From the IMG/VR virus record IMGVR_UViG_3300045988_094674, positions 32,001 through 96,000 of that record: DNA of 64,000 bases; one strand, given 5' to 3'. Position 1 is the first letter of the stretch; the number at the start of each line of letters is the position of its first letter. Below are positions 31,639 to 63,238 of the stretch, piece after piece. Origin of the DNA: a virus. The notes under the pieces were generated by a model. The model did no database searches. It saw only the letters and a program-made list of their open reading frames with translations, and had not been told where the DNA came from. A program made the translations under genes and the position numbers.

Positions 31639-32037
31639 ATGGAAATTTGGGAGTTGAATCTTTTACATGATGGGGATATAGAACGAATATGTATGTGCTC
31701 TGACGAGCAACCACTATTTGAAATGGCAATCGATAGAGCATTTAATTTATTTGCAAAAATAAATGAGTGGCCGCTTGAACAAGATCATTGCCATACTTCT
31801 ATAAATGTAAACGCGCATCTTCATTCTGTTTTTGTAAAAATCAGTACACAAGGTGACAACACAGTTGAACTCTGGGAGTATAAATGGGAATGTATTTATA
31901 AAGAACCTCATGAAGACAAGTCTAGTGACACCTTACTTCAAAAAGTTGTTTCTCATGTACGAGACATTCCAAAACTATTTTATGATTGGGCAGATAATTT
32001 CTGCTGGAAAGCGAGAAAAAATGGCTATTTGCAGTAA
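31639..32037 (+). CDS. hypothetical protein
   Basis: 132-aa ORF. Confidence 0.45.
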   Translation: MEIWELNLLHDGDIERICMCSDEQPLFEMAIDRAFNLFAKINEWPLEQDHCHTSINVNAHLHSVFVKISTQGDNTVELWEYKWECIYKEPHEDKSSDTLLQKVVSHVRDIPKLFYDWADNFCWKARKNGYLQ

Positions 32038-46678: not shown

Positions 46679-49624
46679 TTATGATTTTGGCTCAACATAT
46701 TTATTTGCCGATGCGCTCAGATATGTGATGTACGGGTAGTACGGATAATAGCGGCTCATGGTAACATTCATAACGCCCTCACCCAGATTGGTATCTATCT
46801 TTTTTGTAATCCATTCTACGGGGGTATCATTCTTTAGATAGCGAGCTGCATATTTTATTTTCTGATTAACGTCCAACCACGGAATTAAATGCATACGAAG
46901 CGTTATAGTGTCGGTTAGTCTACAGTTTTTCCAAAGCTGATATTCTGTTGCGAGCATCAAATCCTCGTCATTCGTGTAAGCATCAAACTCTCCACCGGAA
47001 CATACGAGATTTCTGCGTCCAATTTTATCAATCGTAAAGCGACTATTATAAAGGTTCGTCAAATCCTTCGGGTCTGTAACAACGATATACTTCAAATTGT
47101 CACAGCCTTCAATTTCTTTATCTTTTTCAATCTCCGCATCTGTAGGCATCTTATCTACAAATTTCGCCATAGCATGAGACTGAGATTGACCAAGAAAATA
47201 GATCCGGCTCTCTTTTATGAGGGCAGGATCTTCAATCTTTTCTGTATGTTTTCCTTCTTCAGTATTTGTTACCTTGTAATAATGCGTTTCGTACATTTTT
47301 GTTTCTTCGTTGTACTCTTCTTTTACGATATACTGAATCTTTGGATTTATCTCAGTCTTGTCATATTCACCAGTTGTAGAATTGAACACCCATTTATAAG
47401 CACCTTCGTCTGCCTGGTCAAGATATTTTTCTCCATACTGTACAACATAGTAACGTCCTTTTTTCATAACATTTGTATCAATAGGAATATCATTACCATT
47501 TTGATCTGTTGATGCCTTATATACCATCATTGGACCATATACTTGTAACGCGTGATCTTTATATTGCGCTCCATCTTTGTCAACAGCGGTTGTGTAAACA
47601 TCATTTACAATATACATATGAGTATTAAGCGGGATATTTACTGGACAGATGAAAGATAAGCGTGACCCGTCCGATATAATTGCGTTTTTTAGTTTTAAAA
47701 CTATAATAGAGTTTCCAATGTTATTGATATCAAGCTGAATTTCGAAATCATCGTATTTGTCTTTTGGAATCCCTAATATTTCGGCAACAGAGTCTTTCCA
47801 TTTTGATGCTGACATGCCATTATCTCGTGCCTTATAAAACACTCTGCCAGTACCTTCTGGGTCGTCTTCCTCTAGTTTATCCTTGCAGAAATAATCGCTG
47901 GTGATAGTAGAACCCCATGCCTCAACACAATTATGTACCTGCGTATAATCAACCGTCGAATTTTCTGTGATAACAAGACTTTTGAAAATATCAGGGCTAA
48001 TTACAACAGGGTCATCATACCCGTTTGGAATCTCTTTGCATACAAAAGTATCATCATCAAAGTACATCTCAAACGGGTAATATAGGTCACGCAACTCTGT
48101 TAGAATCGTCCAAACAGTAGTTCCAGTATTATACTCCATGTCGTGTGGAATGCGCCGCTTCCAATAATCAATCACGCATTTTGTCATACCGGAAAGCTCG
48201 AAAGTATTCTTGATAACATCTCGCACATAATACGGTTTTGATTTGTCCTCTGTGTAAATCTTATCTCCATTCGCATCCTTGCTCTCAGTAAGTTTATACA
48301 TTGGAATTCGTGTCGAGTACCCAGTCAATGTTCCACCCAGTGTTCCATCAAGCAGGGATACTAAATCTACACACGACAAGTCAAGCTTGTTAGTCATTGC
48401 ATCATACGAGATACCATTCGACTGAATCGCGTAAACCCCGACTGAGAACCAATGTACGCCATCCTCATCGATATAATTTGCACAATTCCTGATAACTTTA
48501 TCCTTCGCAACTGTTTGGATAATAAACTGCTGAATCTGTCCCAGACCATCTTTTAGTTCCCATATGTGGCCCTGAATATCATGCATAGAATATCCGACAA
48601 ATGGACTCGTCTTTTTATACTGGTTCTTTAATTCTGGCTCGCTCCAACCGGCAATTGCCGAAACATCAACTGGCTCTAAGACTCTATTCGCAATCGTTTC
48701 TCCTTCAATGGCAGCGATCATATTTTTTAGATAGATAGACTTTCCATCTATTGTACATGTGAGACCTTTTGCGTCATAAGATAAAACAGCGTCGTTAAAT
48801 TCTAGGTCTTTCGTTGTCCATGATTTTAAATCAAACACAAAACCAGCAACAGGCTTAACATCTTCAGTTTTCTAAGTCAAATCTGATAAGTTGTTTGAAT
48901 TGTAGACTTTATTGTAAGCAAGCTTATAAACCTCAGAAATATAATCTATAACACCGTTACGACTAACTGGAATTAACTCGTCTCCATCCTCTAAAAACAG
49001 CGTATATGCAATTCTCCGAGTTACTGTGACGCCAACCGCCTCATTATCAGCAGTCCAAGCATCGTCGCAACCGCAAGCGGTAGAATAGTCACCAATTTCA
49101 AATGGGCCATTTTCAGTTGAGAAATCCTTATAGAGATTTAAATTGCGTGCAGTCCAAATGATTCGTGGTCGATTTATATTGTTAATATTTGAATATAGGT
49201 CATGCTTTGTTGCTTTGATTTTTGCAATATAAGTCAGCAACTCTTTGTTCTTTAAATCGTATTCTATATTATTTTTTACAATAGAATCAATCGAATCGCC
49301 GTCAATGTCTCCATCATATGTTAAAATACTGACATCTTTCTCTGAAGTTGGGGCTTTCATACCGATATAGATACGAACTTTTTTATCAATCTAATCTTCC
49401 GCTTCAAACTGAGAGATAGAAAAACCCATCATTGGGAAAATAGACAAACTGTATGTACGGCGAATATCAGAATCTGCATCGTTAGAACCGGAACCATCCA
49501 AAGTCAGGCCCTCAATGCTATCAATGATTTGAGACTCTTTGTTCAATAATTCTACTCGTGTAAACAGACTCTTGGAATGACTGGTAAGCAAAGCCAAGTC
49601 TTCTTGTGTTGGCAAATAAGTCAT
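46679..49624 (-). CDS. large tail-tip/baseplate (Tal-like) protein with 2 in-frame TAG
   Basis: RBS AAGGAGGTGG before ATG 49624; ORFs 49391-49624, 48872-49360 and 46679-48838 share one frame, joined by TAGs at 49391 and 48872. Confidence 0.75.
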
Positions 49625-53167: not shown

Positions 53168-56100
53168 TTATCGTTTGTTCAATCTCTGAACCATCTTGTT
53201 TGGAAGCTGTTGTACGATTTGACGAGCCAACGCATCTGTGTCGCCAACGGGGTTATTCACATTCACGTCGCCGATAGTCATACTGATACCGCCAGGATTA
53301 CGAGACTGTACCATTGTAGCTGTGCTATGCTTTGCCATCTGGTCAGTAAACCACTTATCAGGATTTCCACCCATCTCAAACAGGCGAGAAGTAATGTCTG
53401 CAGGAACAACACCATCACCTGTTTCAAGATACGTATAACGACCGGATTGTGGTTGACGGACAATCAATTCGGAGCCTTGTTCATCGACATTGTAAGTGCC
53501 GGTATGTTTAACTCCTTTATCACCGACAGCTTTCTTTCCCCAGTTCCAGAACCAGAATTTAGAACCCCACAGTTTATCCCAGAATGATTGCTGTTTTTGC
53601 TGACCATTCGATACAGAAGAGCTAGAAGAGCTAGAAGAACCAGAAGAATCGGAAGTTTTATTTCCGTTATTAACTGTCGTCTGAACCGCATTGACAGTAA
53701 TATTGGTCTTATTTTTCTTCTTTTTTACATCATTTGCCGTATCTTTGGTATTTTTGGACACATCGTCCAGCTGGCTAGTTGTCTTTTTACCCCAGTTCCA
53801 GAACCAAATAGGCCACTCATAAACTTTTTCGGCCAGTGTCTTGGATGTGGTTCCATTTTTCTTATCGTTAGCTCTTCCGATAGTATCATGAATAAGAGCA
53901 GCGATTGAGAGGACACCACCTGACGAGTTAAAGACAGTAGAAAATAAGGACTTTCCAATCTTTGTCCCAGTATCATCATTACTTTTCCAGATTTTGTTCA
54001 AACCAGCAAAATGATTGACACCCACGCCGAGGCCGGCGAGGACTGCACCAACTATTGGAACAGCAGCCAGCAAACTACTTCCACCAGCAGCCGCAACAGC
54101 TGTACCGCCTGCGCCAGCTACGTTTGCTCCAATAGCTCCGTCAGCCATCAGCTTACTAAGACCAGTTAATCCTGCAGTATTCGTGGCTGTCATTGCAGGA
54201 ACACTAGAAAGAGATACACCACCGATCCCAAGTAAGTTTCCAAGCCATCCTAAAATGCCACTTCCACCGCTTGTTCCAGCACCTTTTCCTCCAAATGCAT
54301 TCGAGATAATTTTTCCGATATTGCTGATGCCATCAGAGAAAATAGAGGTTAGACTATTAGAAGAACTATTACTGAACAACGATTTTGCGCCAGATCCAAT
54401 GGCATCCCATGCGTTTTGAAATACGCCAATGAGTCCGTTCTTAGTTGTAGCAGAGCCAAGCTCCTTCTGTGCGTTAACAACAGCATTCTTTACGCCATCG
54501 GTCATAGAGTTGTTGATAACGCCAGTAATGCCGTTTCCACCGAAAGTGACTTCCGTAGCGTCCGTAATCGTATCAAGGCTATTCGTGATAGTCTTTGTAA
54601 TACTTGTAGAGGAGTTCTTTCCGAAAACTTTCTTAACGGTATTTACAAGGCCAACAAAGCCACCATCTGTATATGTACCTGTCTGCAGGAAATTATAAAC
54701 ATTGTTCAGCTTTTCAAGAGTACCAATCAAAGACTCAAGATTGCTAATAACAGTCTGAATGCCAGAAATTGTGCCACTGTTTTGCAAACTAGCGATAATC
54801 TTATTGTGATATCCATCAAGACTACCTGCCATCTGGCCGAGAGTCATTTCTTGAATCTGGGCAGTGTATTGGAGTTTCTTATTATAATCGTCCCAACTAG
54901 TCCCAATATCTTCCATGACCTCAGACAACTTGTCCTTGAATTCGTTGTACTTTTTGATTTGGTCGTCAATGGCTTTCTCAGCATCTTCCTTATTCCACTG
55001 ACGCTGTTTATCATTTAAATCCTGACGAGCAGTGCGCACAGCTTCGGGGTCAGCCTGCCACTCGTAACCATTCTCTGTATACACACGGCTGGTGCGCTGC
55101 TGTTCTGCACGGGCGAGTTCGTCCTGAGCTTTTGCCAATTCAATAGCACGCTCAGTTGCATCATTGTTTTCTTCAAGCGCTTCCTTCTGTTTGTTCAGAG
55201 CTTCAATACGCTTGTCGATAACATCACCCATCACATCGCCCCAAAGTTTGAGGTCGTTGGAATTGTTGGTATTGAACTTTTCAATAAGAGAGAGGAAAGA
55301 ATTTAGAATGTCTTTTACATCAGATAGTGCATTCTTGAAGTTATCGATTACAGATTCTACGCCTTCCCAGTGTTTTTTAAGCTTTGTCGTGACCTGAGCA
55401 TCAGTTTCCTGAACTTCAAGTAAAGATTCCTGTAAAGCACCATCTAATTCGGCTTGAGCTTCTTCCTTCTGTTGAAGTGCTTCATCTTCAGTTAAATCCT
55501 TATTAGAATTGATTTTAGAAATCTTTCTAGTATACCGAGCCAGAGCCTTTTGGTAAGTAAGAGTCTTTTTCGCCAACTTCTCATATTCTTCAGGAGTAGG
55601 CTCGCGGACATCCTCGATTGCAGCTTCGGCCTGAATACCGATTGGTTTACCCTCGAATTCCTTTGCAAGCTCTTTGAGCTGTTTGACGTAATTGTCACGC
55701 AAAGTTTTTACATCAAGCTTTGCATTACCATCTTCATCGTAGCCCAACAGGCTAGAGAATTCGTCAGGCAAGGCCATCAAGTTTTGCATTGTGTCCTGAG
55801 TGAGCTGACCAGTCTCGTTCCACTCGTCCATTGCGTCTTTCAGAGTATTCCAATTAGACTGGTAACGATCAAGAACATCATTAGCATTGCTTAAATCAGT
55901 TCCAAGACCACTCGCCCAATCAGTCGGTGTTATTTTTCCTTGACTAATATTTTGAGATGCGCTATGATACGCATTGTAGAGAGCATCAGCTCCTGCGCCG
56001 CCCGTTTCCTTTGCAGTATTTGCAAGATCTTCTAACGTTTTAGCTAGAGCATTTTTAAACGCTTCGGTATTCAGATTGATATTTCCGTTTTCATCCACAA

Positions 56101-58405
56101 TGTTATTGAGAAGATCAGGGTAATCCTTATACTGAGTAACAAGATTACGAATCGCATCTGTTTGTTTATCGATAGAATCTGCATCAGCAATACCAAACTG
56201 ACTATCACCCAACGTTTTGATAACGTCTTTTAACCCAGAAAATGCGGATTTTATAGCATCCGTCTTTTCCTTAGCCTTGTCCATCGCAGTGCCGTAGCCC
56301 TTGATAGCGTCAGTCAACTGCTCAAAAGAGATGGTTTCAGAATCAACACTAGAATTCAACCAGTCGAGAATCTTCTTCATCTCGCCAGCAGACTTGCCAC
56401 CATCATTAGCCGCATTTGCTTCCTTGAGTTGTGCCTTAATAAATGTGCGGAATTTGGCTGTATTAAGTTCAAGTTTTCCGTTTTGCTCCGTCAAACAAGC
56501 AGTAAACTTGTCATCGACACCAATCAGTGACTTCATTGTATCAGCACAGATATAACCATATTGGTTATATTCTTTCATGGCCTTTGTTAAGGTATCAAAA
56601 GCAGAAGCAATATCAGTCACAGACTTCGCAGTAGACTTGTTGTTCTTGCTGGCCTTATTTGTCGGGAACCCATTCAACTGATTTGTTAATGCTCGCCCAC
56701 CCTTTAAAGCGGCATTCATATTGGTGTACAGCAAAGAAAGCTGAGTATTTGTGCGAGTCGTGATTTCCTCTAGTTTTGCAGGATCTACGCCGCGTTCGCC
56801 GGCCTTCTCTACTTCGTTTGCAAACTCCTGAGCTGCACTGTATGTCGCAGTAGCCGCAGTAGCATTTTTCAAAGCAGGAAGAAGATTTTCCAGAGCAGTC
56901 TTTTCAGCCTCTGTTTTCTCTTTTAAATCATCAGTGCTTTCAGCCGTGTCATCTGCAGTAAGGTTTGCGACCTCATGTTGTGCGTTAGAAAGAATTGTGG
57001 CGGCAGCTTCTGCGTATTCAGCAGCAAGTAACTCGGCATAACTCTGTTTATTTATCTGGAGCTTACCATTAACAAGCTCAAGGCAATTCAGATATTCGGT
57101 GTTCATCGTCAGTAAAGACTGAAGAGAATCAAGACTCATGTAACCATACTGATTGTACTCTTCCATTGCACTGGTAGAAGCTTTATACGCAGACTGGATT
57201 TCATCCATTTTGGAAGAAATATCTTCCATCTTCTGTGCGCCAGCAGCCAATGCGTCAACACCATTTGCAGAAGACTGAGCTACAATACCAACTTGAACAA
57301 GTGCTTGGATAAACGCATTCACACCGTTTGTGTCAGCAGAGAAGTCCATGTCGGTCAGAGCTTTGCGAAGATTTGCAAGGGCTTGAGCTTGCTCGTCGGA
57401 TAATCCTTCGTTTGTACCCCACAAGAGTTCATTCAGCTTACTTGCATCAAATCCATCAATCGTATCTTCCAGAGTTTGAACAGCAGAATTTACCTTATCG
57501 AAAGTAAAACTGACATCCATACTGTTATTATTGTCATTCTGCCAAAAATCAACTGCTTGAAGTTTTCTACGAGCGTTTGTATTGTTGTTGATAGCATCCG
57601 TTGAGTCGTTGTAAGAATCTACATCATCACGGAGAGCAGATTGTTCATCAAGCAAGAATTGATACAGACTATGATACGTTCCACCGGCAGCTCGTTCAGC
57701 CTCAGTTGTGTTATCAATGATATATTTTAATGCTTTGCCAACTTCGTTGTAATAATCAACAATTGAATCCGCATCATTTAACTTGTCAGGTCCATAACCA
57801 CCGAACTTGTTAAAGACATCAATGCCAGCATTTTTAATCTGGTCTCCCATATCCATTTCAGGAGCCGACCAAACAGTAAGATAATGCGTCCGATTATTCT
57901 TCTTGGCTGTATCAACAAGCTTATCGCCTTGAGCATCTTTGTTCTGTGTCAACTCATAACGAGATGCCTCTAACTGCTCCGCTGTAATATCCTGAAGTAA
58001 TCCAAGCTGCTCTTCATACTTGCCATTTTGAAGGTCAAGTTTACCAAGTTTATTTTCATCAAGCGTTCTTTGTTCTTTCGCAAGATCAAGAATCTCTGCC
58101 TGAATGTCTTTTGCTTGATCAAAGTCCTCTGTATCCCAACCAGACTTGTCGCCAAGTTCTTCATAAGCACTGACCAAATCCTTTAAAGAGGAAGTGGTGC
58201 TCTGTGCAGCATCGGCGGCTTCCTTGGATTTCGTTGCGACATTTTGCACTCGTTGTGCCGCTTCCGTAATCTTCTTAGTGCCCCAAGAGACAAGCAGGCC
58301 AATTCCAACACCCAGCGCGGCATTGAGCAGTAAAGCTTCAGCTCTTAACGCAATCATTTTCAACCGCGTTCCTTCAAGTTCAAGTTTAGCTTGACCTGAT
58401 AACAT
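53168..58405 (-). CDS. tape-measure-like protein, large distal part
   Basis: 1745 aa coiled-coil protein with Gly/Ala-rich hydrophobic block; no SD before ATG 58405; frame stays open upstream to 58633. Confidence 0.7.
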   Translation of the reverse strand: MLSGQAKLELEGTRLKMIALRAEALLLNAALGVGIGLLVSWGTKKITEAAQRVQNVATKSKEAADAAQSTTSSLKDLVSAYEELGDKSGWDTEDFDQAKDIQAEILDLAKEQRTLDENKLGKLDLQNGKYEEQLGLLQDITAEQLEASRYELTQNKDAQGDKLVDTAKKNNRTHYLTVWSAPEMDMGDQIKNAGIDVFNKFGGYGPDKLNDADSIVDYYNEVGKALKYIIDNTTEAERAAGGTYHSLYQFLLDEQSALRDDVDSYNDSTDAINNNTNARRKLQAVDFWQNDNNNSMDVSFTFDKVNSAVQTLEDTIDGFDASKLNELLWGTNEGLSDEQAQALANLRKALTDMDFSADTNGVNAFIQALVQVGIVAQSSANGVDALAAGAQKMEDISSKMDEIQSAYKASTSAMEEYNQYGYMSLDSLQSLLTMNTEYLNCLELVNGKLQINKQSYAELLAAEYAEAAATILSNAQHEVANLTADDTAESTDDLKEKTEAEKTALENLLPALKNATAATATYSAAQEFANEVEKAGERGVDPAKLEEITTRTNTQLSLLYTNMNAALKGGRALTNQLNGFPTNKASKNNKSTAKSVTDIASAFDTLTKAMKEYNQYGYICADTMKSLIGVDDKFTACLTEQNGKLELNTAKFRTFIKAQLKEANAANDGGKSAGEMKKILDWLNSSVDSETISFEQLTDAIKGYGTAMDKAKEKTDAIKSAFSGLKDVIKTLGDSQFGIADADSIDKQTDAIRNLVTQYKDYPDLLNNIVDENGNINLNTEAFKNALAKTLEDLANTAKETGGAGADALYNAYHSASQNISQGKITPTDWASGLGTDLSNANDVLDRYQSNWNTLKDAMDEWNETGQLTQDTMQNLMALPDEFSSLLGYDEDGNAKLDVKTLRDNYVKQLKELAKEFEGKPIGIQAEAAIEDVREPTPEEYEKLAKKTLTYQKALARYTRKISKINSNKDLTEDEALQQKEEAQAELDGALQESLLEVQETDAQVTTKLKKHWEGVESVIDNFKNALSDVKDILNSFLSLIEKFNTNNSNDLKLWGDVMGDVIDKRIEALNKQKEALEENNDATERAIELAKAQDELARAEQQRTSRVYTENGYEWQADPEAVRTARQDLNDKQRQWNKEDAEKAIDDQIKKYNEFKDKLSEVMEDIGTSWDDYNKKLQYTAQIQEMTLGQMAGSLDGYHNKIIASLQNSGTISGIQTVISNLESLIGTLEKLNNVYNFLQTGTYTDGGFVGLVNTVKKVFGKNSSTSITKTITNSLDTITDATEVTFGGNGITGVINNSMTDGVKNAVVNAQKELGSATTKNGLIGVFQNAWDAIGSGAKSLFSNSSSNSLTSIFSDGISNIGKIISNAFGGKGAGTSGGSGILGWLGNLLGIGGVSLSSVPAMTATNTAGLTGLSKLMADGAIGANVAGAGGTAVAAAGGSSLLAAVPIVGAVLAGLGVGVNHFAGLNKIWKSNDDTGTKIGKSLFSTVFNSSGGVLSIAALIHDTIGRANDKKNGTTSKTLAEKVYEWPIWFWNWGKKTTSQLDDVSKNTKDTANDVKKKKNKTNITVNAVQTTVNNGNKTSDSSGSSSSSSSSVSNGQQKQQSFWDKLWGSKFWFWNWGKKAVGDKGVKHTGTYNVDEQGSELIVRQPQSGRYTYLETGDGVVPADITSRLFEMGGNPDKWFTDQMAKHSTATMVQSRNPGGISMTIGDVNVNNPVGDTDALARQIVQQLPNKMVQRLNKR

Positions 58406-58553
58406 CCATTTGATAAAATCAGAAATAGAAAGATTAGTTTCGCCAGGAATACTCTTGTAAGCTTTATATTTTTCAATTAAAGCAACTAACGAAGTACCTA
58501 CTTGGTTAAAAGCACTTATCTGTAATTCTTTTTCTTTGGAGTCAACCGTAAAG

Positions 58554-58564
58554 AAAGTTAATAT
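58554..58564. repeat. left copy of 11-bp inverted repeat AAAGTTAATAT
   Basis: Exact reverse complement of 60816-60826. Confidence 0.5.
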
Positions 58565-58588
58565 CGATTTCGAGGAGATGTGAAATCT

Positions 58589-59002
58589 ATGGAAAAATAT
58601 GTACGGTATTGTCCATTTTGCGATAAATACTATTCAAGATGGGACTTATTATGTGCTTTTTGTATTCGAGACAATATTTTGCTTATAGAATGGAACGAAA
58701 TGACAAAAAAACAAAAAGAAGAATGGAAAAATAAAACTAAGCCAAGGAGAAGTATTTCTGAAATAAATCCAGATACTCTCAAAAAACTTCAAAAGAATGC
58801 CAATACTTTCGATTCCCAATATAGAGCAGAACTGGAAGAAAAGGAACATCCTAAATACACCCCAAAATGCCCTACATGCGGCTCGCCAGACCTAGAAAAG
58901 ATCGGAACCGCTTCTAAAGTCTTGGATGTTGCTTTCTGGGGATTTGCCAGTGGAAAAGTGAAGAAAACTTTCCATTGTAAGAATTGTGGATATGAGTGGT
59001 GA
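58589..59002 (+). CDS. zinc-ribbon protein (opposite strand to the tail genes)
   Basis: RBS GAGGAG; CPFCDK...CAFC and CPTCGS...CKNCGYEW. Confidence 0.6.
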   Translation: MEKYVRYCPFCDKYYSRWDLLCAFCIRDNILLIEWNEMTKKQKEEWKNKTKPRRSISEINPDTLKKLQKNANTFDSQYRAELEEKEHPKYTPKCPTCGSPDLEKIGTASKVLDVAFWGFASGKVKKTFHCKNCGYEW

Positions 59003-59036
59003 TAAAAGAAAAGCCCTACTACACAAAGTAGCAGGG
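59003..59036 (-). terminator. hairpin terminator after the membrane-protein gene
   Basis: CCCTACTAC/GTAGCAGGG stem, followed on the minus strand by CTTTTCTTTTAT. Confidence 0.45.
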
Positions 59037-59053
59037 TAGTGGTCGTATTCGTT

Positions 59054-59659
59054 TTAGCGTAGAACGTATTTCGCAGTTTCGGAATCCAGATTGTCGTACA
59101 TGAACTCGAATCGTTTTACGTGAGACATTGGGACACATAAAGCTGTATCATCATTTAAATGAGAAACAGCTTCATCCATCTTATCTCCGTTCCGATCAGT
59201 TGCTGTGGCATGGTAAGTCAAAACGATATAGTCATTATCGGCGTTTTCGATTGTGCCATAAATATAGGTTCCATCGTCCATATGAAGCATCACATCGGTT
59301 TGCCCACTAAAATCGATATGGCGAGTCCAAATATTGTCGCCAGTATCGTAGCCGAGATGATTACTAAACCACTTTCTTACCGGAATAGAGTTTTTGATTT
59401 TGTAAAACAAGGAAGAGCATACAATGCCAGTTACAATATAAACAATAACGATAGGAAAACCCTTGATAGTGAATCTTCCAAGTAAATGGTCAGCGTAATC
59501 AACGATATACTTGATAGTAAATCCAAAAGCAATACTTAATGAAAGAAACCCTTGGTATTCAATTTTCTTTAAAGAAAGCTTTGTGTAAAACCAAACACAA
59601 AGAGCTCCTGGAACAAATACATTGAATAGTGTTTCGACATTATTTACTAGTTCCTTCAT
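59054..59659 (-). CDS. membrane protein with soluble C-terminal domain
   Basis: ATG 59659 after GGAGGG; 3-4 TM segments then a ~90-aa beta-rich domain. Confidence 0.55.
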   Translation of the reverse strand: MKELVNNVETLFNVFVPGALCVWFYTKLSLKKIEYQGFLSLSIAFGFTIKYIVDYADHLLGRFTIKGFPIVIVYIVTGIVCSSLFYKIKNSIPVRKWFSNHLGYDTGDNIWTRHIDFSGQTDVMLHMDDGTYIYGTIENADNDYIVLTYHATATDRNGDKMDEAVSHLNDDTALCVPMSHVKRFEFMYDNLDSETAKYVLR

Positions 59660-59834
59660 TCGACCCTCCATTCCCTCGTTGTTTATCGCGGTTTCTAAGA
59701 TAAGAGCCGCCATGTGTTTTTACCGAATCTGTACCGGAATAAGTATAAGTATTCCTTGGAGACTGACGTTCTTGAGTCGGTGCCCCATACGTAGAGATTT
59801 CATAATTCGGCACATGCTTTTTATTGTTTTCCAT
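59640..59834 (-). CDS. small hydrophilic protein
   Basis: RBS AAAGGAG 10 nt before ATG 59834; overlaps next start by 20 nt. Confidence 0.4.
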   Translation of the reverse strand: MENNKKHVPNYEISTYGAPTQERQSPRNTYTYSGTDSVKTHGGSYLRNRDKQRGNGGSNEGTSK

Positions 59835-59890
59835 GGTTCAACACTCCTTTTACAAGAGTGTATCACAGACTGTCGTAAAAAGCAACGCAA

Positions 59891-59929
59891 ATTAAAACGC
59901 CCGGCCTCCCAGTAGTAGGGAAGTCGGGC
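59891..59929 (-). terminator. GC-rich hairpin terminator
   Basis: GCCCGGCCTCCC/GGGAAGTCGGGC stem with T-rich tracts on both sides. Confidence 0.55.
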
Positions 59930-59954
59930 TTATTTTATGATGACTGCGCCGTTG

Positions 59955-60287
59955 TTATTTCAGAAGTTCAGCGATTTCTTCAGCAGTCATACCATTTGCC
60001 AGTGCGTTAGCAACGATATCTTCTGCCTTTTTACGATTCAGCTCTGCGGCAATCTTTTCATCGGCATCAGCCTTTTTCTTTTCGAGCTTTACAATCTCTT
60101 TATTGATTTTCTTCAATTCAGCTTCCTTAGCTTTTTTATCAGCATTCAGTGCAGCAATATTGGTGCCGAGTGCTGTGATTTCTTCAGCAAGAGATTCTGC
60201 GGCAGTATTCTTTTCAGCAATCTGTGCTGCGTAATCAATACCATCAAGAACCTTTGCTTTATTCTTACTTCCCTTGGGTCTAGCCAT
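59955..60287 (-). CDS. AT-hook-like N-terminus + coiled-coil small protein (DUF4315-like)
   Basis: ATG 60287 after GGAGGTG; MARPKGSKNK; ends GMTAEEIAELLK. Confidence 0.55.
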   Translation of the reverse strand: MARPKGSKNKAKVLDGIDYAAQIAEKNTAAESLAEEITALGTNIAALNADKKAKEAELKKINKEIVKLEKKKADADEKIAAELNRKKAEDIVANALANGMTAEEIAELLK

Positions 60288-60330
60288 AATAAAACACCTC
60301 CGTATATTTTGGATACGCGATTGTAATATT

Positions 60331-60359
60331 ATTATAGCCAGAATATCGTATGTAGTCAA
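60331..60359 (-). promoter_or_regulatory. near-consensus sigma70 promoter inside the cassette
   Basis: TTGACT, 17-nt spacer, TATAAT on the minus strand, ~37 nt before ATG 60287. Confidence 0.65.
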
Positions 60360-60537
60360 CGAATATTTTGTTTTCTCCTATTTTGTATCGCGCCAGAGAG
60401 TAGCGCGTCTCCTCATTTCCACCTACTTCTTTAAGTCGTCTGGTTACGTCTGAGGTGGACTTCTGAACTTTCGCCCAGAACTGACTATCCTTCCAGTGGT
60501 TGCTCACTGACCCTTTTTAGTCGATGAACCTTCCACC

Positions 60538-60553
60538 TTCCTACATTATATAA
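60538..60553 (-). promoter_or_regulatory. 16-nt repeat TTATATAATGTAGGAA (minus strand), copy 1
   Basis: Contains TATAAT; identical copy 152 bp upstream; TATAATGTAG is also the -10 region at 15267-15276. Confidence 0.4.
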
Positions 60554-60689
60554 TAGGGGAGTGGATCGGCTGCTGACCGCCCATTGTAAACGCTACTTAG
60601 CACTCGATTATTACCATATTTTGGCAATACGATAAAACCGAGCTTTTATCTCAGCATATAGCATCCATATCCTTGTTTCTATCTTTCGA

Positions 60690-60705
60690 TTCCTACATTA
60701 TATAA
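60690..60705 (-). promoter_or_regulatory. 16-nt repeat TTATATAATGTAGGAA (minus strand), copy 2
   Basis: Identical to 60538-60553. Confidence 0.4.
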
Positions 60706-60790
60706 ATATAACAATAGGCGATATGGCTCTTAGGGTTTCCCAGCACTCTAGGGGCTATTTTATTTTTACATGGTGCCGCATCCTATATTT

Positions 60791-63238
60791 TTATACGCAA
60801 CAAATATAAGAGGGCATATTAACTTTACCCGCACCATTTTTGAGCTTTCCGCTCATCTGCATTACAGACAACACGCCGGAAATGGCGGCTGTCAGAGTTG
60901 GTAATGCGCCAGCAAATTTTACAGCACTATCTGCACCGTCAACAAAAACAGTAGCAAGGCTTATAAAGAACTTCGGGATATCAGACTTCATCAAGTCCGT
61001 ACTAAACTTCTGGAATGCAGAATCAAGCTGATTAAGCTTCGCCTGCAAGGAGTCCATGTACGTCTGGTTCTCACGCATTGCGCTGCCACTAGAATTGAGT
61101 GCCTGCTTCATAGCGTCTTCAGCAACACTAAAATTATTCAGCAGGGCAGATGTACTCTGACCTCCTCTCTTTCCAGAGATCAGCTCAGTAATATTTGCCT
61201 GTGTTGTGTCAGACAGATCTTTCCAAACCTCAGAAAGTTCCTTCATAATCTGATAGGTTGATTTGAAGGTATTATTATCCTTCATAATATCAACACCAGC
61301 AAGTTGCTTCAACTCAGATCGAAGTTCGGACACAGAATCTGCCATCCCATCTGTTGCGATACCGGCATTTTCTGCATCTGTTTTTGAAGCACGAAGGTAC
61401 ATACTCAAAGTTTTTAGGTAAGTGCCACTCGTATCTGCGTCCTGAAGTACACCGTTTACAGCAGACGCCAAACTAAGCGTCTCCTGATATGTATTTCCGG
61501 CGGCAGACATCGCAGCGGAACTTTTCTGCATGATAATTCCAAGGTCGTTCATACTGACTGGTTCAGTATTAGCGATTTGGTTCATGCAGTCCAGAAGACG
61601 CTCTGCATCATCAGCAACCAACCCAAAACCTTGCATTGCAGAAATCAGGTAAGAAGAAGCAGTTGTTGCATTATCTATCTGGTCTCCAACATTAGCCATA
61701 AGAGCAGACACACGAGCAAGCTCTTCAGAGTCTTTGTCCGTATATCCAAGTCGCTTCTAATCGGCAGTGCTACTTACAAGATCAGAAATATTAGCACCAA
61801 GATTACGAGCGTTTGTTGCAGTTCTATCGAGATATTCGTTCATCTCGTCGTCAGTCATTTTACTGACTTTTTTAAGCTCTGTTACAGCCGTATCAAGTTC
61901 CAGAACATTATTATAAACCTCTCGCAGACCTTGTTTGACCATAGCCACGCCAGCCATAGCAATAGCTGTCTGGAAGTGCTCCTTAAACAGACGAGACAGT
62001 TTTTGACCAAGAGTTTCTGTAGTGGCCCCACATCTGCTGGCCTCAACCTCAAGATTTGATAGTCTTGCACTAAGATCAGTAACATTGCCTTCACAGCCAG
62101 CAGCAGAAGCTTTTATTCCGTTTAAACTATCAATTAGCCAAGAATATTTACTTTTATTTGCAATAGAGTCTTCTAACTTCGTTGCACGTTCATAAACACT
62201 CTTAAACTTCGTCATATCAACATTGGCTTGATTTATATCTCTAAAATCAAATCCAAGTTCTTTTAAATGTTGACTTGTAGAATCAATAGTTGTATCAAGA
62301 GTCTTGCATTTTTTATCAAAGTCTTGAATTGCTTTCCCTGGTGTAGTGTTCTCAATAGAAGCAAGCTGATCTCGTAACTCTTTTAACTTTCCAGAAGTTT
62401 TTCCAGTTCCATCTTCTCCATATAAATATTTTTTGATATTATCATTTTTATAGTTGGAGTTATTCTTAGAATAGTTTTCAAGAGACTGAATCTTTTTTTG
62501 ATATTTTTCATACTCGGATTCTTGAGATATGAGAGTCTTTTTTAAATCATCTGCAATTTCTTGATTTTGTTTTTTTAGTTCTTTTGCAGCCGAATCAGCA
62601 CCTTTTGCAGTATTCCTGTCAGCATTGAATTTTCCGGTTTTTTCGATATCCTCAAGCTTTAACTTCTGAGTTTCCGTAATTACATCTTTTGTTTTTGTCT
62701 TGAGTTTATCCATCTCATCGTTGATTGCGCTCAATCTAGTCTGTACCGCTTTCAACTCAGATGATTTGTTTCCATTAGCAATTAACAATGCTTCATCCGC
62801 TTTTAACTTTGCTTGACGATTTGCAAGGCTGAAAAGGCGAGAAATATCACTTTTTGAAGTATCTTGCGGTTTTGCAGAACCAGACTTTCCGGTATCAACC
62901 TTAACTGTCTGCTTTGCTGCAGATTGCATAGCTTTTTTAAGCTGTGCGGTTACTTTACTCTGGTCAACCTTAACATCAAGTGTAACCTTTGGAGTTCTTA
63001 ATTTTCCACTCTTGACCACCTTGTCAAGTGCGTCATTTATATTGCGGATTGTATCGTTTTGATTCACTCCGAAAGCAATTTTTACTGGTTTTTCTTTATA
63101 ATACTCTTTAACAGAATTAAATTGCTTGTCTAACTCTGCTTTATTTGCGTCAATAACAACCTTAACCTTGATAGCTGTTACAGAGGAAGTATCAGCACTA
63201 CTTGCGGTGTTTGTATTATCCGCCATACCGTTGGTCAC
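60791..63238 (-). CDS. tape-measure protein, proximal part with TP901-type core, read through an in-frame TAG
   Basis: ORFs 61757-63238 and 60791-61711 share one frame joined by TAG 61757-61759; core ANVGDQIDNATTASSYLISAMQGFGL...; start at 63238 (GTG) or 63226 (ATG). Confidence 0.75.
60816..60826. repeat. right copy of 11-bp inverted repeat (ATATTAACTTT)
   Basis: Reverse complement of 58554-58564; lies where the upstream TMP ORF stops looking protein-like. Confidence 0.5.

Follow-up and report, generated by a model that had tools for sequence, protein, structure and literature searches.

The T4 nrdD (sunY) intron has its catalytic core wholly upstream of its ORF, a single sense-strand homing-endonuclease frame of ~0.8 kb, and base pairing returns its remote 3' splice site to the core. 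Activation of the group I catalytic core is reported to depend on such a remote junction. Group I introns (IVS1-3) are also found in the tape-measure protein (TMP) genes of Bacillus cereus-group prophages (Tourasse and Kolsto, 2008; PMC2504315), and the IStrons (CdISt1, BcISt1 and others) combine a group I ribozyme with cargo downstream of P9.2 (Tourasse et al., 2014; PMC4227781). Both an intron of this class in a prophage TMP gene and cargo after P9.2 are already documented (PMC2504315; PMC4227781).

The window analyzed here is a 64,000-nt stretch of a gut phage genome (IMG/VR record IMGVR_UViG_3300045988_094674, positions 32,001 to 96,000). Its TMP gene lies on the minus strand and is split by 2262 nt, from 60826 to 58565. 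As judged from its sequence, this insert is very probably a self-splicing group I intron, one carrying swappable accessory genes in place of a homing endonuclease. The original prediction described the insert as a cassette with an inverted 11-mer at its edges. That description gives way to the intron reading, but the coordinates behind it were all verified. The TMP locus is broken by an insert of ~2.3 kb; the proximal frame from 63238 ends ...GKVNMPSYICCV at TAA 60791-60793; ahead of the distal ORF (ATG 58405) the frame is open as far as 58633 but lacks ATG, GTG and TTG; the halves share a phase (4833 nt, 1611 codons); and the 11-mer AAAGTTAATAT is located at 58554-58564 (plus strand), with its reverse complement at 60816-60826. 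No support was found for an extension of the 11-mer to GTAAAG(AAAG)TTAATAT, and the stretch from 63238 to 60791 is not the single ORF once assumed, since it contains an in-frame TAG. The 11-mer has only two copies in the window (chance expectation 0.09), and the 3.5 kb around the insert contain one more perfect 11-mer inverted pair and two longer imperfect pairs. A perfect 11-nt inverted pair is by itself unremarkable; this one is significant because it is placed at both junctions and conserved in relatives. The 5' copy is best read as intron nt 1-11, part of the guide sequence, and the 3' copy as exon 2 nt 1-11 rather than a cassette end, which sets the true limits at 60826 and 58565.

The candidate ribozyme (60389..60826, minus strand) makes up the first ~438 nt of the intron and was delineated with Rfam RF00028 and a manual structure comprising P1, P2, P3-P9, a ~150-nt P5 extension, P9.1 and P9.2. 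RF00028 aligned over its full model (1-253) at 60462-60813 with 22.7 bits (E = 0.006 in a targeted scan of 2.7 kb), short of the gathering score of 50, and a scan of the whole window returned no match at E <= 0.05; the ~150-nt P5 insertion and a short P8 lower the score. The classic core elements UGCUGGGAAACCC, GGUCAGCAGCC, GUUCAUCGACUAAA and GGAUAGUCAG are found in this alignment. The manual structure has 76 pairs in 13 helices (P1-P9.2), including the core helices P3-P8 with the P3/P7 pseudoknot as well as P1, P2 and P9. P1 is only 4 bp long, P8 directly follows the 3' strand of P3, and no P7.1/P7.2 is evident. Scored on 80 distinct relatives, 97.5% of cells were paired compared with 37-46% for slid partners, a difference inflated by the structure having been built from the same 80 sequences. 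Compensatory change in these relatives affects seven pairs (three in P2, two in P6 and two in P9.2), with 38 compensatory cells against 7.3 in shuffles and 0/500 shuffles as high. Changes in P3, P8, P9 and P9.1 keep a standard pair almost always, mostly through G-C/G-U/A-U switches; the invariance of P7 is uninformative because the relatives were gathered by a 24-mer containing it. This pattern of compensatory change points to purifying selection on the ribozyme.

The ribozyme is present in at least 118 gut viral contigs, and wherever both ends of the element are readable the insertion is at the same TMP codon. The ribozyme adjoins exon 1 in one orientation in 50/50 loci, and the window has a single copy of the element. 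Sequence similarity among relatives stops just past P9.2, where a variable gene island begins; this island accounts for intron lengths of 1.9 to 6.1 kb.

The putative internal guide sequence, AAAGUUAAUAUGCCC (60812..60826, minus strand; read from sequence), begins at intron nt 1 and is identical in 79/80 distinct relatives. Its GCCC pairs with the exon-1 end GGGU to form P1, with U-G at the splice site, and its AAAGUUAAUAU pairs with exon 2 nt 1-11 to form P10. Set against the ligated junction GGGU-AUAUUAACUUU, the guide makes 15 contiguous complementary pairs, one of them G-U. P10 has 11/11 pairs in the window and 10/11 or wobble pairs in variants; it shows no compensatory change because the guide is invariant, and some exon-2 variants are mismatched (A to U at position 6 or 7). 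The U preceding the 5' splice site forms a U-G pair with the guide in 80/80 sequences. The Gly codon before this site is GGT in 80/80, with a varying Ala codon ahead of it (GCG, GCA, GCT), and is GGA in the intron-less homologue. At the far end, conservation places the 3' splice site between 58565 and 58564 (minus strand): the last base of the intron, 58565, is G in 50/50 loci, whereas the four preceding nt and the exon past nt 14 vary. Exon 2 opens with the P10 partner of the guide, the 11 nt AUAUUAACUUU (58554..58564, minus strand; codons I L T F), of which the first 9 are identical in intron-less homologue L127. There is no duplication at the intron ends.

TMP exon 1 (60827..63238, minus strand) ends ...AAT GGT GCG GGT, has PF10145 and phrog_4211 TMP matches up to the junction, and ends in the same way in relatives P0048, P0058 and P0064. 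A read-through tail, KVNMPSYICCV plus TAA (60791..60826, minus strand), is also present in the proximal ORFs of relatives. Its stop codon is located in the P2 loop, and in the relatives read the in-frame stop falls 12 codons into the intron; an early in-frame stop of this kind is usual for phage introns. In all representatives of at least 43% identity the proximal ORF ends ~9 aa beyond the junction. Exon 2 (53168..58564, minus strand) spans 1798 codons between the 3' splice site and its stop, and the annotated “distal ORF” from ATG 58405 is an internal part of it. Of the upstream extension described as protein-like, the part from 58564 downward (ILTFFTVDSK...) is indeed conserved, but 58565-58633 belongs to the intron. 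The 50 loci have 25 different exon-2 N-termini; an in-frame start near the 3' splice site is absent from most of these variants, no start codon is conserved among them, and a stop ends the frame 0-38 codons ahead of the site. Lacking a conserved start codon, exon 2 has to be rejoined to exon 1, which was one of the two outcomes that the original prediction allowed.

The single ancestral TMP gene that was originally proposed is supported by uninterrupted TMPs, which align unbroken across the junction. A comparison with homologues located P0161 (...SGKKAG|ILTPII...) and P0195 (...GNDAG|VLTPFY...), both matching the predicted junction to the residue, and the TMPs of PMBT24 and Nate, each aligning across it in a single piece. 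Removal of the intron restores an ORF collinear with these homologues, the exons joining in frame at a predicted ligated sequence of GGTGCGGGT|ATATTAACTTTC. The proposed collinearity of the halves stands, but with the join placed at NGAG|ILTFFTVDSK, five residues ahead of the NGAG-TVDSK first suggested. A ligated-junction search of IMG/VR and JGI metagenome contigs gave chance matches only, with no spliced or intron-less close allele.

Exon 1 of the window copy has a TAG at 61757-61759 where relatives have TGG (Trp), and this particular genome may therefore make no full TMP at all. A TAG-reassigned phage was considered and rejected, given the TGG of relatives and no tRNA in the window. Only one further TAG, at 48872, separates long open stretches of the same frame; it lies between separately listed ORFs, the second with its own GTG start.

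From the observed anatomy, conservation, covariation and collinearity with uninterrupted homologues we infer that the TMP transcript is spliced, presumably by guanosine-dependent self-splicing, with steps that follow established group I chemistry. The late transcript would run through the entire intron, passing its internal terminators. The guide (intron nt 1-15) would form GGGU/GCCC with the four nt that end exon 1, its U-G pair falling at the splice site, and free guanosine would attack after the terminal U of exon 1. Released exon 1 would be held by P1, and perhaps also by a possible further exon:intron helix, AUGGUG/CACCAU. Pairing of the 11-nt P1 loop with exon 2 nt 1-11 (P10) would bring the remote terminal G (58565) to the G-binding site, and exon ligation would yield one TMP of ~2600 aa, ...KLKNGAG|ILTFFTVDSK....

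What, then, does the intron carry? The cargo is defined as all intron sequence that follows P9.2, up to the 3' splice site. Just past the ribozyme, ahead of cargo gene 1, is a promoter-like TTGACT-17-TATAAT (60331..60359, minus strand; 11/12, a consensus match only). Cargo gene 1 (59955..60287, minus strand) encodes a 110-aa coiled-coil protein, near-constant in relatives and found in 46/48 distinct cargos, with a weak DUF4315 match only and no family at the Pfam threshold. Past it, a terminator-like hairpin, GCCCGACTTCCC...GGGAGGCCGGGC then GTTTTAATTT (59890..59929, minus strand), was read from the sequence and is not listed by the terminator/promoter scan. Cargo gene 2 (59640..59834, minus strand), a 64-aa ORF with an AAAGGAG ribosome-binding site, has homologues in 25 loci and no family match. 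Cargo gene 3 (59054..59659, minus strand) has homologues in 27 loci and encodes a 201-aa protein with no Pfam, PHROG or PADLOC match, which is likely membrane-associated, its N-terminal half being hydrophobic. The scan places a further terminator-like hairpin (59014..59036, minus strand) between the convergent cargo genes. The last of these, antisense to TMP (58589..59002, plus strand), encodes a 137-aa protein with two zinc ribbons that is constant in relatives (48/48 cargos, four invariant CxxC pairs) and has no nuclease match by structure or sequence. Its start codon and GAGGAG ribosome-binding site are 7-26 nt inside the 3' splice site, and a promoter-like TTGACC-17-TAAAAT with TG inside exon 2 (58391..58419, plus strand; consensus match only) could drive it.

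In relatives, variable cargo of toxin-antitoxin-like and candidate defence genes lies between the two constant small genes; its families include SocA/Panacea, PemK/MazF, DUF3800 and retropepsin-like proteins, and an aspartyl protease gene has either orientation depending on the relative. No homing endonuclease, transposase or recombinase was found among the window intron ORFs (Pfam, PHROG, PADLOC). The 48 cargos of relatives have no ORF > 279 aa, and scans of ten cluster representatives found no transposase or recombinase. The cargo looks like an island of exchangeable accessory genes.

The terminator-like hairpins on the sense strand and the convergent antisense gene could stop or disturb transcription before exon 2. 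This bears on an unlikely alternative, that the group I intron is split and acts partly or wholly in trans, or that splicing in cis is gated by late antitermination. In the trans version a first transcript (exon 1 and ribozyme) would end at an internal terminator, exon 2 would be on a second transcript starting inside the cargo, and the unusually long 11-bp P10 would capture it for ligation; in the other, cis splicing would occur only when late antitermination reads past the cargo terminators. Nothing requires two transcripts, however, and although the intron sense strand has a strong promoter-like site besides its hairpins, no sense-strand promoter is evident near the 3' splice site, where the last cargo gene is antisense. 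Loci L001 and L002 do have an additional hairpin and T-run directly after the ribozyme, and the 15 contiguous guide pairs and extra exon:intron helix would suit holding two RNAs together, but a remote 3' splice site in cis is known in T4 nrdD/sunY, which counts against this alternative. Such sites are also known in cis in IStrons (PMC4227781).

Less probable still is that the halves are never rejoined, so that two TMP polypeptides are made (~800 aa ending KVNMPSYICCV, and ~1750 aa from ATG 58405) and the ribozyme is a relic or serves the cargo only. Gene callers do call two ORFs in each close relative, and a few relatives have an in-frame TTG/ATG at or just before the 3' splice site, but these starts lack conservation, a stop codon comes immediately before the splice site in several variants, and the first Met of exon 2 is anywhere from 0 to 198 codons in. 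Moreover, protein-level conservation covers the 53 codons ahead of ATG 58405, with an ILT that matches uninterrupted homologues, and both the apparent purifying selection on the ribozyme and the invariant U-1 and terminal G disfavour this option, which the original prediction had left standing.

Its other option, DNA rearrangement, is the least credible: the perfect inverted 11-mer at either edge, variable cargo content and an aspartyl protease gene in both orientations among relatives might suggest transposon ends, or recombination sites around a cassette that inverts or excises, with intact TMP restored in DNA before late expression, but inverted repeats lead to inversion of a segment and not excision, an equally good chance pair lies nearby, the 3' 11-mer is coding exon present also in the intron-less homologue, the ribozyme stays next to exon 1 in constant orientation in 50 loci with no inverted cassette at any, neither the window intron nor the ten cargo representatives scanned has a recombinase or transposase, no excised allele occurs among viral and metagenome contigs, and there is no empty site in close relatives and no target-site duplication.

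Read as a group I intron, the element resembles B. cereus IVS1-3 in that a self-splicing intron would interrupt TMP in a phage or prophage of Firmicutes, and in that gene callers report the split gene as separate ORFs. No sequence relationship with IVS1-3 was detected, however, and the present intron has, without a homing endonuclease, a 1.4-5.7-kb multi-gene island that varies among relatives. With IStrons it shares the ribozyme at the 5' end, foreign genes after P9.2, a 3' splice site kilobases from the core, an AU-rich long-range pairing that brackets the insert, splicing that would neutralize the insertion, and a Firmicutes setting. Of the IStron features beyond this 5' ribozyme layout, IS200/IS605 or IS607 transposase genes (TnpA/TnpB), evident P7.1/P7.2 and multiple genomic sites were not found: IStrons have many genomic copies, whereas the present intron has a single conserved insertion site. 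Its cargo consists instead of accessory, toxin-antitoxin-like and candidate defence genes, and its AU-rich pairing is between guide and exon 2 (P10) rather than intron and intron. The T4 nrdD (sunY) intron is similar in its core upstream of the intron ORF and its remote 3' splice site, but the present island has three to eight or more genes on both strands, its own promoter- and terminator-like sites, and no endonuclease.

Phage “moron” or defence hotspots likewise have constant flanks around variable small genes. Here the flanks are the ribozyme and coiled-coil gene on one side and the zinc-ribbon gene and 3' splice site on the other but, unlike those hotspots, the island interrupts the coding sequence of a late structural gene that is essential. 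A hotspot would be tolerated there only because it lies within an intron, and splicing would render the cargo harmless to the essential TMP gene.

The tape-measure protein (TMP) reading frame on the minus strand covers 1611 codons from 63238 to 58406 and is divided between two listed ORFs. The proximal part carries a PhageMin_Tail domain (PF10145), matches the PHROG TMP profile phrog_4211 at profile positions 564-659 and 663-949, and has the C-terminus ...SGKLKNGAGKVNMPSYICCV before a TAA stop (60791-60793). The distal ORF is listed from the ATG at 58405; its frame is open upstream to 58633 and holds no start codon there. The frame is maintained when 60827 is joined to 58564, and the product reads ...VMQMSGKLKNGAG|ILTFFTVDSKEKEL..., with the predicted ligated RNA junction ...AATGGTGCGGGT|ATATTAACTTTC... 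and the predicted junction-spanning peptide LKNGAGILTFFTVDSK. Distant TMPs of Enterocloster phage PMBT24 and Bacillus phage Nate align through this junction in one piece (Nate GRGINTFTT aligned with GAGILTFFT), and many TMPs of ~30% identity among 1.84 billion representative proteins also span it. The original prediction had pointed to uninterrupted TMPs as the informative comparison, and two closer homologues of this kind match the predicted junction: P0161 (...LSASGKKAG|ILTPIIIDEKDKK...) and P0195 (...VSGNDAG|VLTPFYAKNGK...). At the DNA level, the P0161 locus (L127, GCA_002127115.1) reads GCTGGA|ATATTAACTCCA vs GCGGGT|ATATTAACTTTC in the window. Judged by these alignments, the uninterrupted homologues fix the predicted exon boundary to the residue.

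Two further irregularities were seen in TMP genes. Within exon 1, an in-frame TAG at 61757-61759 on the minus strand (SSTAD*KRLGY) is TGG (Trp) in close relatives and is therefore a single G-to-A difference, which reflects either a genuine nonsense mutation, making this copy defective, or a mistake in sequencing or assembly. Recoding of this stop was rejected, as a tRNA scan of the window found no suppressor tRNA and the window has no other clear case. The L127 TMP (400-560; NFZD01016437.1), intron-less at the window's site, starts MTALKTLTL..., which is the middle of the TMP domain in P0195 (...DPDVVGTALKTLTL...); this suggests that the L127 gene is interrupted elsewhere, further upstream, perhaps by another intron.

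How would the two parts be rejoined? The favoured mechanism is cis self-splicing of a group I intron (60826 to 58565, 2262 nt) with a remote 3' splice site; the anatomy, conservation and collinearity described here are matters of observation, and the splicing chemistry we infer from that established for group I introns. The intron starts with an internal guide sequence, AAAGUUAAUAU-GCCC. GCCC pairs with GGGU at the end of exon 1 to form P1, with a U-G pair at the splice site, and AAAGUUAAUAU forms P10 with exon 2, whose first 11 nt are AUAUUAACUUU; against ligated GGGU-AUAUUAACUUU, the whole guide can form an unbroken run of 15 pairs, including one G-U. The original prediction had read the interruption as a cassette bounded by inverted 11-mers. 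The element is better described as a group I intron, its ribozyme beginning exactly at the 5' 11-mer; the 3' 11-mer is the P10 partner of the guide and so belongs to exon 2 (codons I-L-T-F) rather than to a cassette end, the intron itself ending at G 58565.

Both splice sites can be followed through the relatives. At the 5' end, 79 of 80 distinct sequences share GGT|AAAGTTAATATGCCC exactly; the codon for the Gly before the splice site is always GGT and the preceding Ala codon is GCG, GCA or GCT. The 3' junction in 50 loci reads G|(A/G)T(A/G)TT(A/T)(A/T)CTTT, the G being invariant and the four bases before it variable (ATCG, ATTG, AATG, GTAG, TCAG and others). Some exon-2 variants pair with the guide through wobble (A1 to G, A3 to G) and others have one P10 mismatch (A6 or A7 to U); because the guide never changes, P10 offers no covariation. 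The distance from 5' to 3' site in relatives ranges from 1880 to 6122 nt (median 3189; 2262 in the window).

Pairings beyond the guide may help to bridge this distance. AUGGUG in exon 1 (-10 to -5) and CACCAU in the intron (52-57), just after P2, form a 6-bp helix in an RNAalifold prediction (60832-60837 with 60770-60775 on the window's minus strand). The helix is retained in 80/80 sequences, and two of its G-C pairs become G-U among the relatives; conservation of the exon side is uninformative since it is coding. Such a helix might keep the 5' exon in place after cleavage, while transcription proceeds to the remote 3' splice site. A GAGGAGA motif between P9.1 and P9.2 (60408-60414, minus strand) is nearly invariant, with one G-for-A change among 80 sequences, and all loci have its complement UCUCCUC 7-20 nt upstream of the terminal G (58572-58578, minus strand, in the window). 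Pairing of the two could provide a further long-range contact that draws the 3' end towards the core, much as the inverted-repeat stem does in IStrons. However, the antisense gene's ribosome-binding site is complementary to UCUCCUC as well, and the distance from UCUCCUC to the splice site varies. Transcription through the terminator-like hairpins inside the intron is most simply assumed to rely on late antitermination or on weak terminators. A variant in which the exons are spliced in trans is improbable, even though the guide pairing and the exon:intron helix might also suit it.

The ribozyme itself was found in a permissive Rfam scan of 58300-61000, in which Intron_gpI (RF00028) at 60462-60813 on the minus strand was the sole match with E < 0.01. 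The alignment spans the whole model (1-253) at 22.7 bits (E = 0.006), well short of the gathering score (50), a shortfall to which the short P8 and an insertion of ~150 nt in P5 contribute. Across the whole window Rfam gave nothing at the gathering threshold and nothing at E <= 0.05 in an E-value scan, so by itself the match is only a lead. It includes the classical core elements UGCUGGGAAACCC, GGUCAGCAGCC, GUUCAUCGACUAAA and GGAUAGUCAG, which we take to be the group I P, Q, R and S elements. A structure comprising P1, P2, P3-P9 with the P3/P7 pseudoknot, P9.1 and P9.2 was written by hand and scored on an alignment of 80 distinct ribozyme sequences, the same sequences from which it was derived. 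Standard pairs occupy 97.5% of 6061 cells, falling to 37-46% when 3' partners are slid by 1-3 columns. Changes on both sides occur at seven pairs (three in P2, two in P6, two in P9.2), giving 38 such cells vs 7.3 in shuffles, a count reached by 0/500 shuffles. Nearly all variation in P3, P8, P9 and P9.1 preserves standard pairing, chiefly through G-C/G-U/A-U switches, and P6 contains a conserved C-A mismatch. The invariance of P7 is uninformative because P7 lies inside the 24-mer used to collect relatives. Infernal's own P1 (CUUAUAUU/GUAUAAA) was rejected, and the stem is taken as P2, since it lies inside the intron by the homologue-defined junction and covaries as a closed hairpin. A 15-mer, TATATAATGTAGGAA, occurs twice in the ribozyme on the minus strand, once in the P5 extension (60690-60704) and once across the P6 loop and the start of the P6 3' strand (60538-60552). 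RNAalifold attempted a pairing between the sequences around these copies; a tertiary contact, an alternative fold or a -10-like promoter element are possibilities.

The interruption is widespread. A protein search with the joined junction found >1000 close relatives in human-gut assemblies, with no junction-spanning protein in the best 120 of these. Proximal ORFs of relatives all end ...NGAGKVNMPSY(I/V)CCV, and distal ORFs start M-ILTFFTVDSK..., ...ILSFLFTADEDG... or M-VLTFFSTNG.... In the search of 1.84 billion representative proteins, all with >=43% identity on the exon-1 side stop ~9 residues past the junction, which argues for the same intron in quite divergent TMPs. The ribozyme 24-mer GGTTCATCGACTAAAAAGGGTCAG is present in at least 118 IMG/VR contigs, mostly of 110-140 kb, and a single time in a metagenome-assembled genome of Faecalibacterium. 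When the region and the ribozyme were compared with 50,697 phage records by megablast and blastn, the only matches were one of 145 nt in cargo and a chance one of 47 nt.

Two separately translated TMP polypeptides would fit this consistent listing of paired ORFs, and are unlikely given the structure of exon 2 (53168..58564). In 25 variants the reading frame continues without a stop for hundreds to >2000 codons past the predicted 3' splice site; upstream of the site it closes within 0-38 codons, in some variants by a TAG directly before the site. Most of the 25 have no in-frame start codon between the upstream stop and the splice site, and the first Met falls anywhere from codon 0 to 198. Exon 2 diverges strongly past ~14 nt, with 25 different N-termini. 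On the exon-1 side, a stop 12 codons into the intron, in the P2 loop, is kept in the relatives read. These reading frames argue that exon 2 cannot stand alone and, with the homologues that match the junction, bear out the central idea of the original prediction, one interrupted gene that needs rejoining. The split frame and the inverted 11-mers (AAAGTTAATAT at 58554-58564, its reverse complement at 60816-60826, no further copy in the window, chance expectation 0.09) were reproduced as originally described. A rearrangement of DNA at the locus, as flanking repeats might suggest, is nevertheless also unlikely: the pair alone is unexceptional because another perfect inverted 11-mer pair lies within the same 3.5 kb, and a search with the ligated-exon DNA AATGGTGCNGGTRTRTTWWCTTT found no intron-less close allele or spliced cDNA in IMG/VR or JGI metagenomes, its 2 and 9 matches, respectively, all being unrelated proteins with a chance NGAG-(I/V)(L/F)(S/T).

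Beyond P9.2 the intron carries cargo on both strands. On the minus strand, a promoter-like site (TTGACT-17-TATAAT, 60359-60331) is followed by a 110-aa coiled-coil ORF (60287-59955) with a hairpin and T-run behind it, a 64-aa ORF (59834-59640), a probably membrane-associated 201-aa ORF (59659-59054) and a terminator-like hairpin (59036-59014). The plus strand encodes a double zinc-ribbon protein of 137 aa (58589-59002), with its start and ribosome-binding site abutting the 3' splice site. These ORFs gave no significant Pfam, PHROG or PADLOC match and include no recognisable endonuclease or transposase. The zinc-ribbon family has 167 detectable members, all unnamed, with four invariant CxxC pairs; the AF2 model (pLDDT 78.6) had no Foldseek PDB match below E = 0.7, and a role as homing endonuclease found no support, a PDB sequence search giving only zinc-ribbon noise. 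An ORF at 60280-60507 (FWAKVQKS...) was dropped as a homing-endonuclease remnant; it overlaps ribozyme P8-P9.2 and has no family match.

Among 48 distinct cargos, the zinc-ribbon gene is present in all 48, the coiled-coil gene in 46 and the membrane-protein gene in 27 loci. A retropepsin-like, PDC-M08B-like aspartyl protease occurs in 15 loci on either strand, and the other variable genes encode three kinds of SocA/Panacea antitoxin-domain proteins, a PemK/MazF-domain protein, a PDC-M04A-like DUF3800 protein and several unknowns. The retropepsin-like cluster (C10) comprises 5 sense and 12 antisense ORFs (e.g., L097, L001:5025-5510, L003:3760-4200), so individual modules apparently undergo insertion or inversion in the intron independently of one another. 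In nine relatives (L074:10540-10950, L052, L027, L035, L015, L045, L063, L075 and L022) apical P6 is replaced by a GC-richer insert of ~430 nt, absent from the window, whose ends re-form the P6 stem. Its antisense strand has a hydrophobic ORF of 31 codons (MDMATIRATILSVAEFVTTLGYALYVIAYLMR), preceded by a strong ribosome-binding site (GGAAGGAGG), with a TTGATATAAT promoter-like site at the opposite end. Rfam found nothing in the insert, which looks like a type I toxin-antitoxin module; cargo would then occupy a second intron position. Two other relatives (L001:3560-3660, L002:2530-2640) have ~200 nt right after P9.2 that are missing from the window and include a strong hairpin and T-run (AAGAGCCGCCTACTG...ATAGGCGGCTCTTTT); if this works on the sense strand, transcription would terminate directly behind the ribozyme.

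The T4 nrdD intron likewise has its ribozyme first, coding sequence downstream and a distant 3' splice site. In IStrons, too, the ribozyme comes first, foreign genes follow P9.2 and the 3' splice site is far (PMC4227781). The window intron shares this layout but was rejected as an IStron: a transposase is absent, P7.1/P7.2 are not evident and there is only one insertion site. Group I introns are documented in phage structural genes and, more specifically, in prophage TMP genes (PMC2504315; PMC3706429). Known group I payloads are a homing endonuclease or an insertion sequence; the payload here suggests something different, a variable multi-gene set of toxin-antitoxin-like and candidate defence genes on both strands with their own promoter-like sites, and no description of an intron with a variable, multi-gene, two-strand accessory payload was found in the open-access literature.

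We advance, with a little less than an even chance for all its parts jointly, an endonuclease-free group I intron whose post-P9.2 region is an exchangeable accessory or defence island, with swapping arms and splicing adaptations. If so, the island, extending in some relatives to the P6 loop, would be lodged in a late gene that is essential to an abundant lineage of human-gut phages of ~130 kb, and self-splicing would free the TMP gene from its cost. The conserved intron ends would be recombination arms for cargo swapping, and the exceptional length of the guide pairing (15 bp), together with the exon:intron helix, would be adapted to ligation with a 3' splice site transcribed 2-6 kb later, or possibly to trans splicing. 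The annotation of a very common gut-phage gene is corrected in that the two ‘minor tail’/TMP proteins listed in many database entries are probably one protein of ~2600 aa, and the long guide pairing with a kilobase-remote 3' splice site provides a natural test case for group I 3' splice-site capture. If confirmed, self-splicing introns in essential phage genes would be safe harbours for accessory genes, with a bearing on where phages keep defence and counter-defence genes and on how such genes move.
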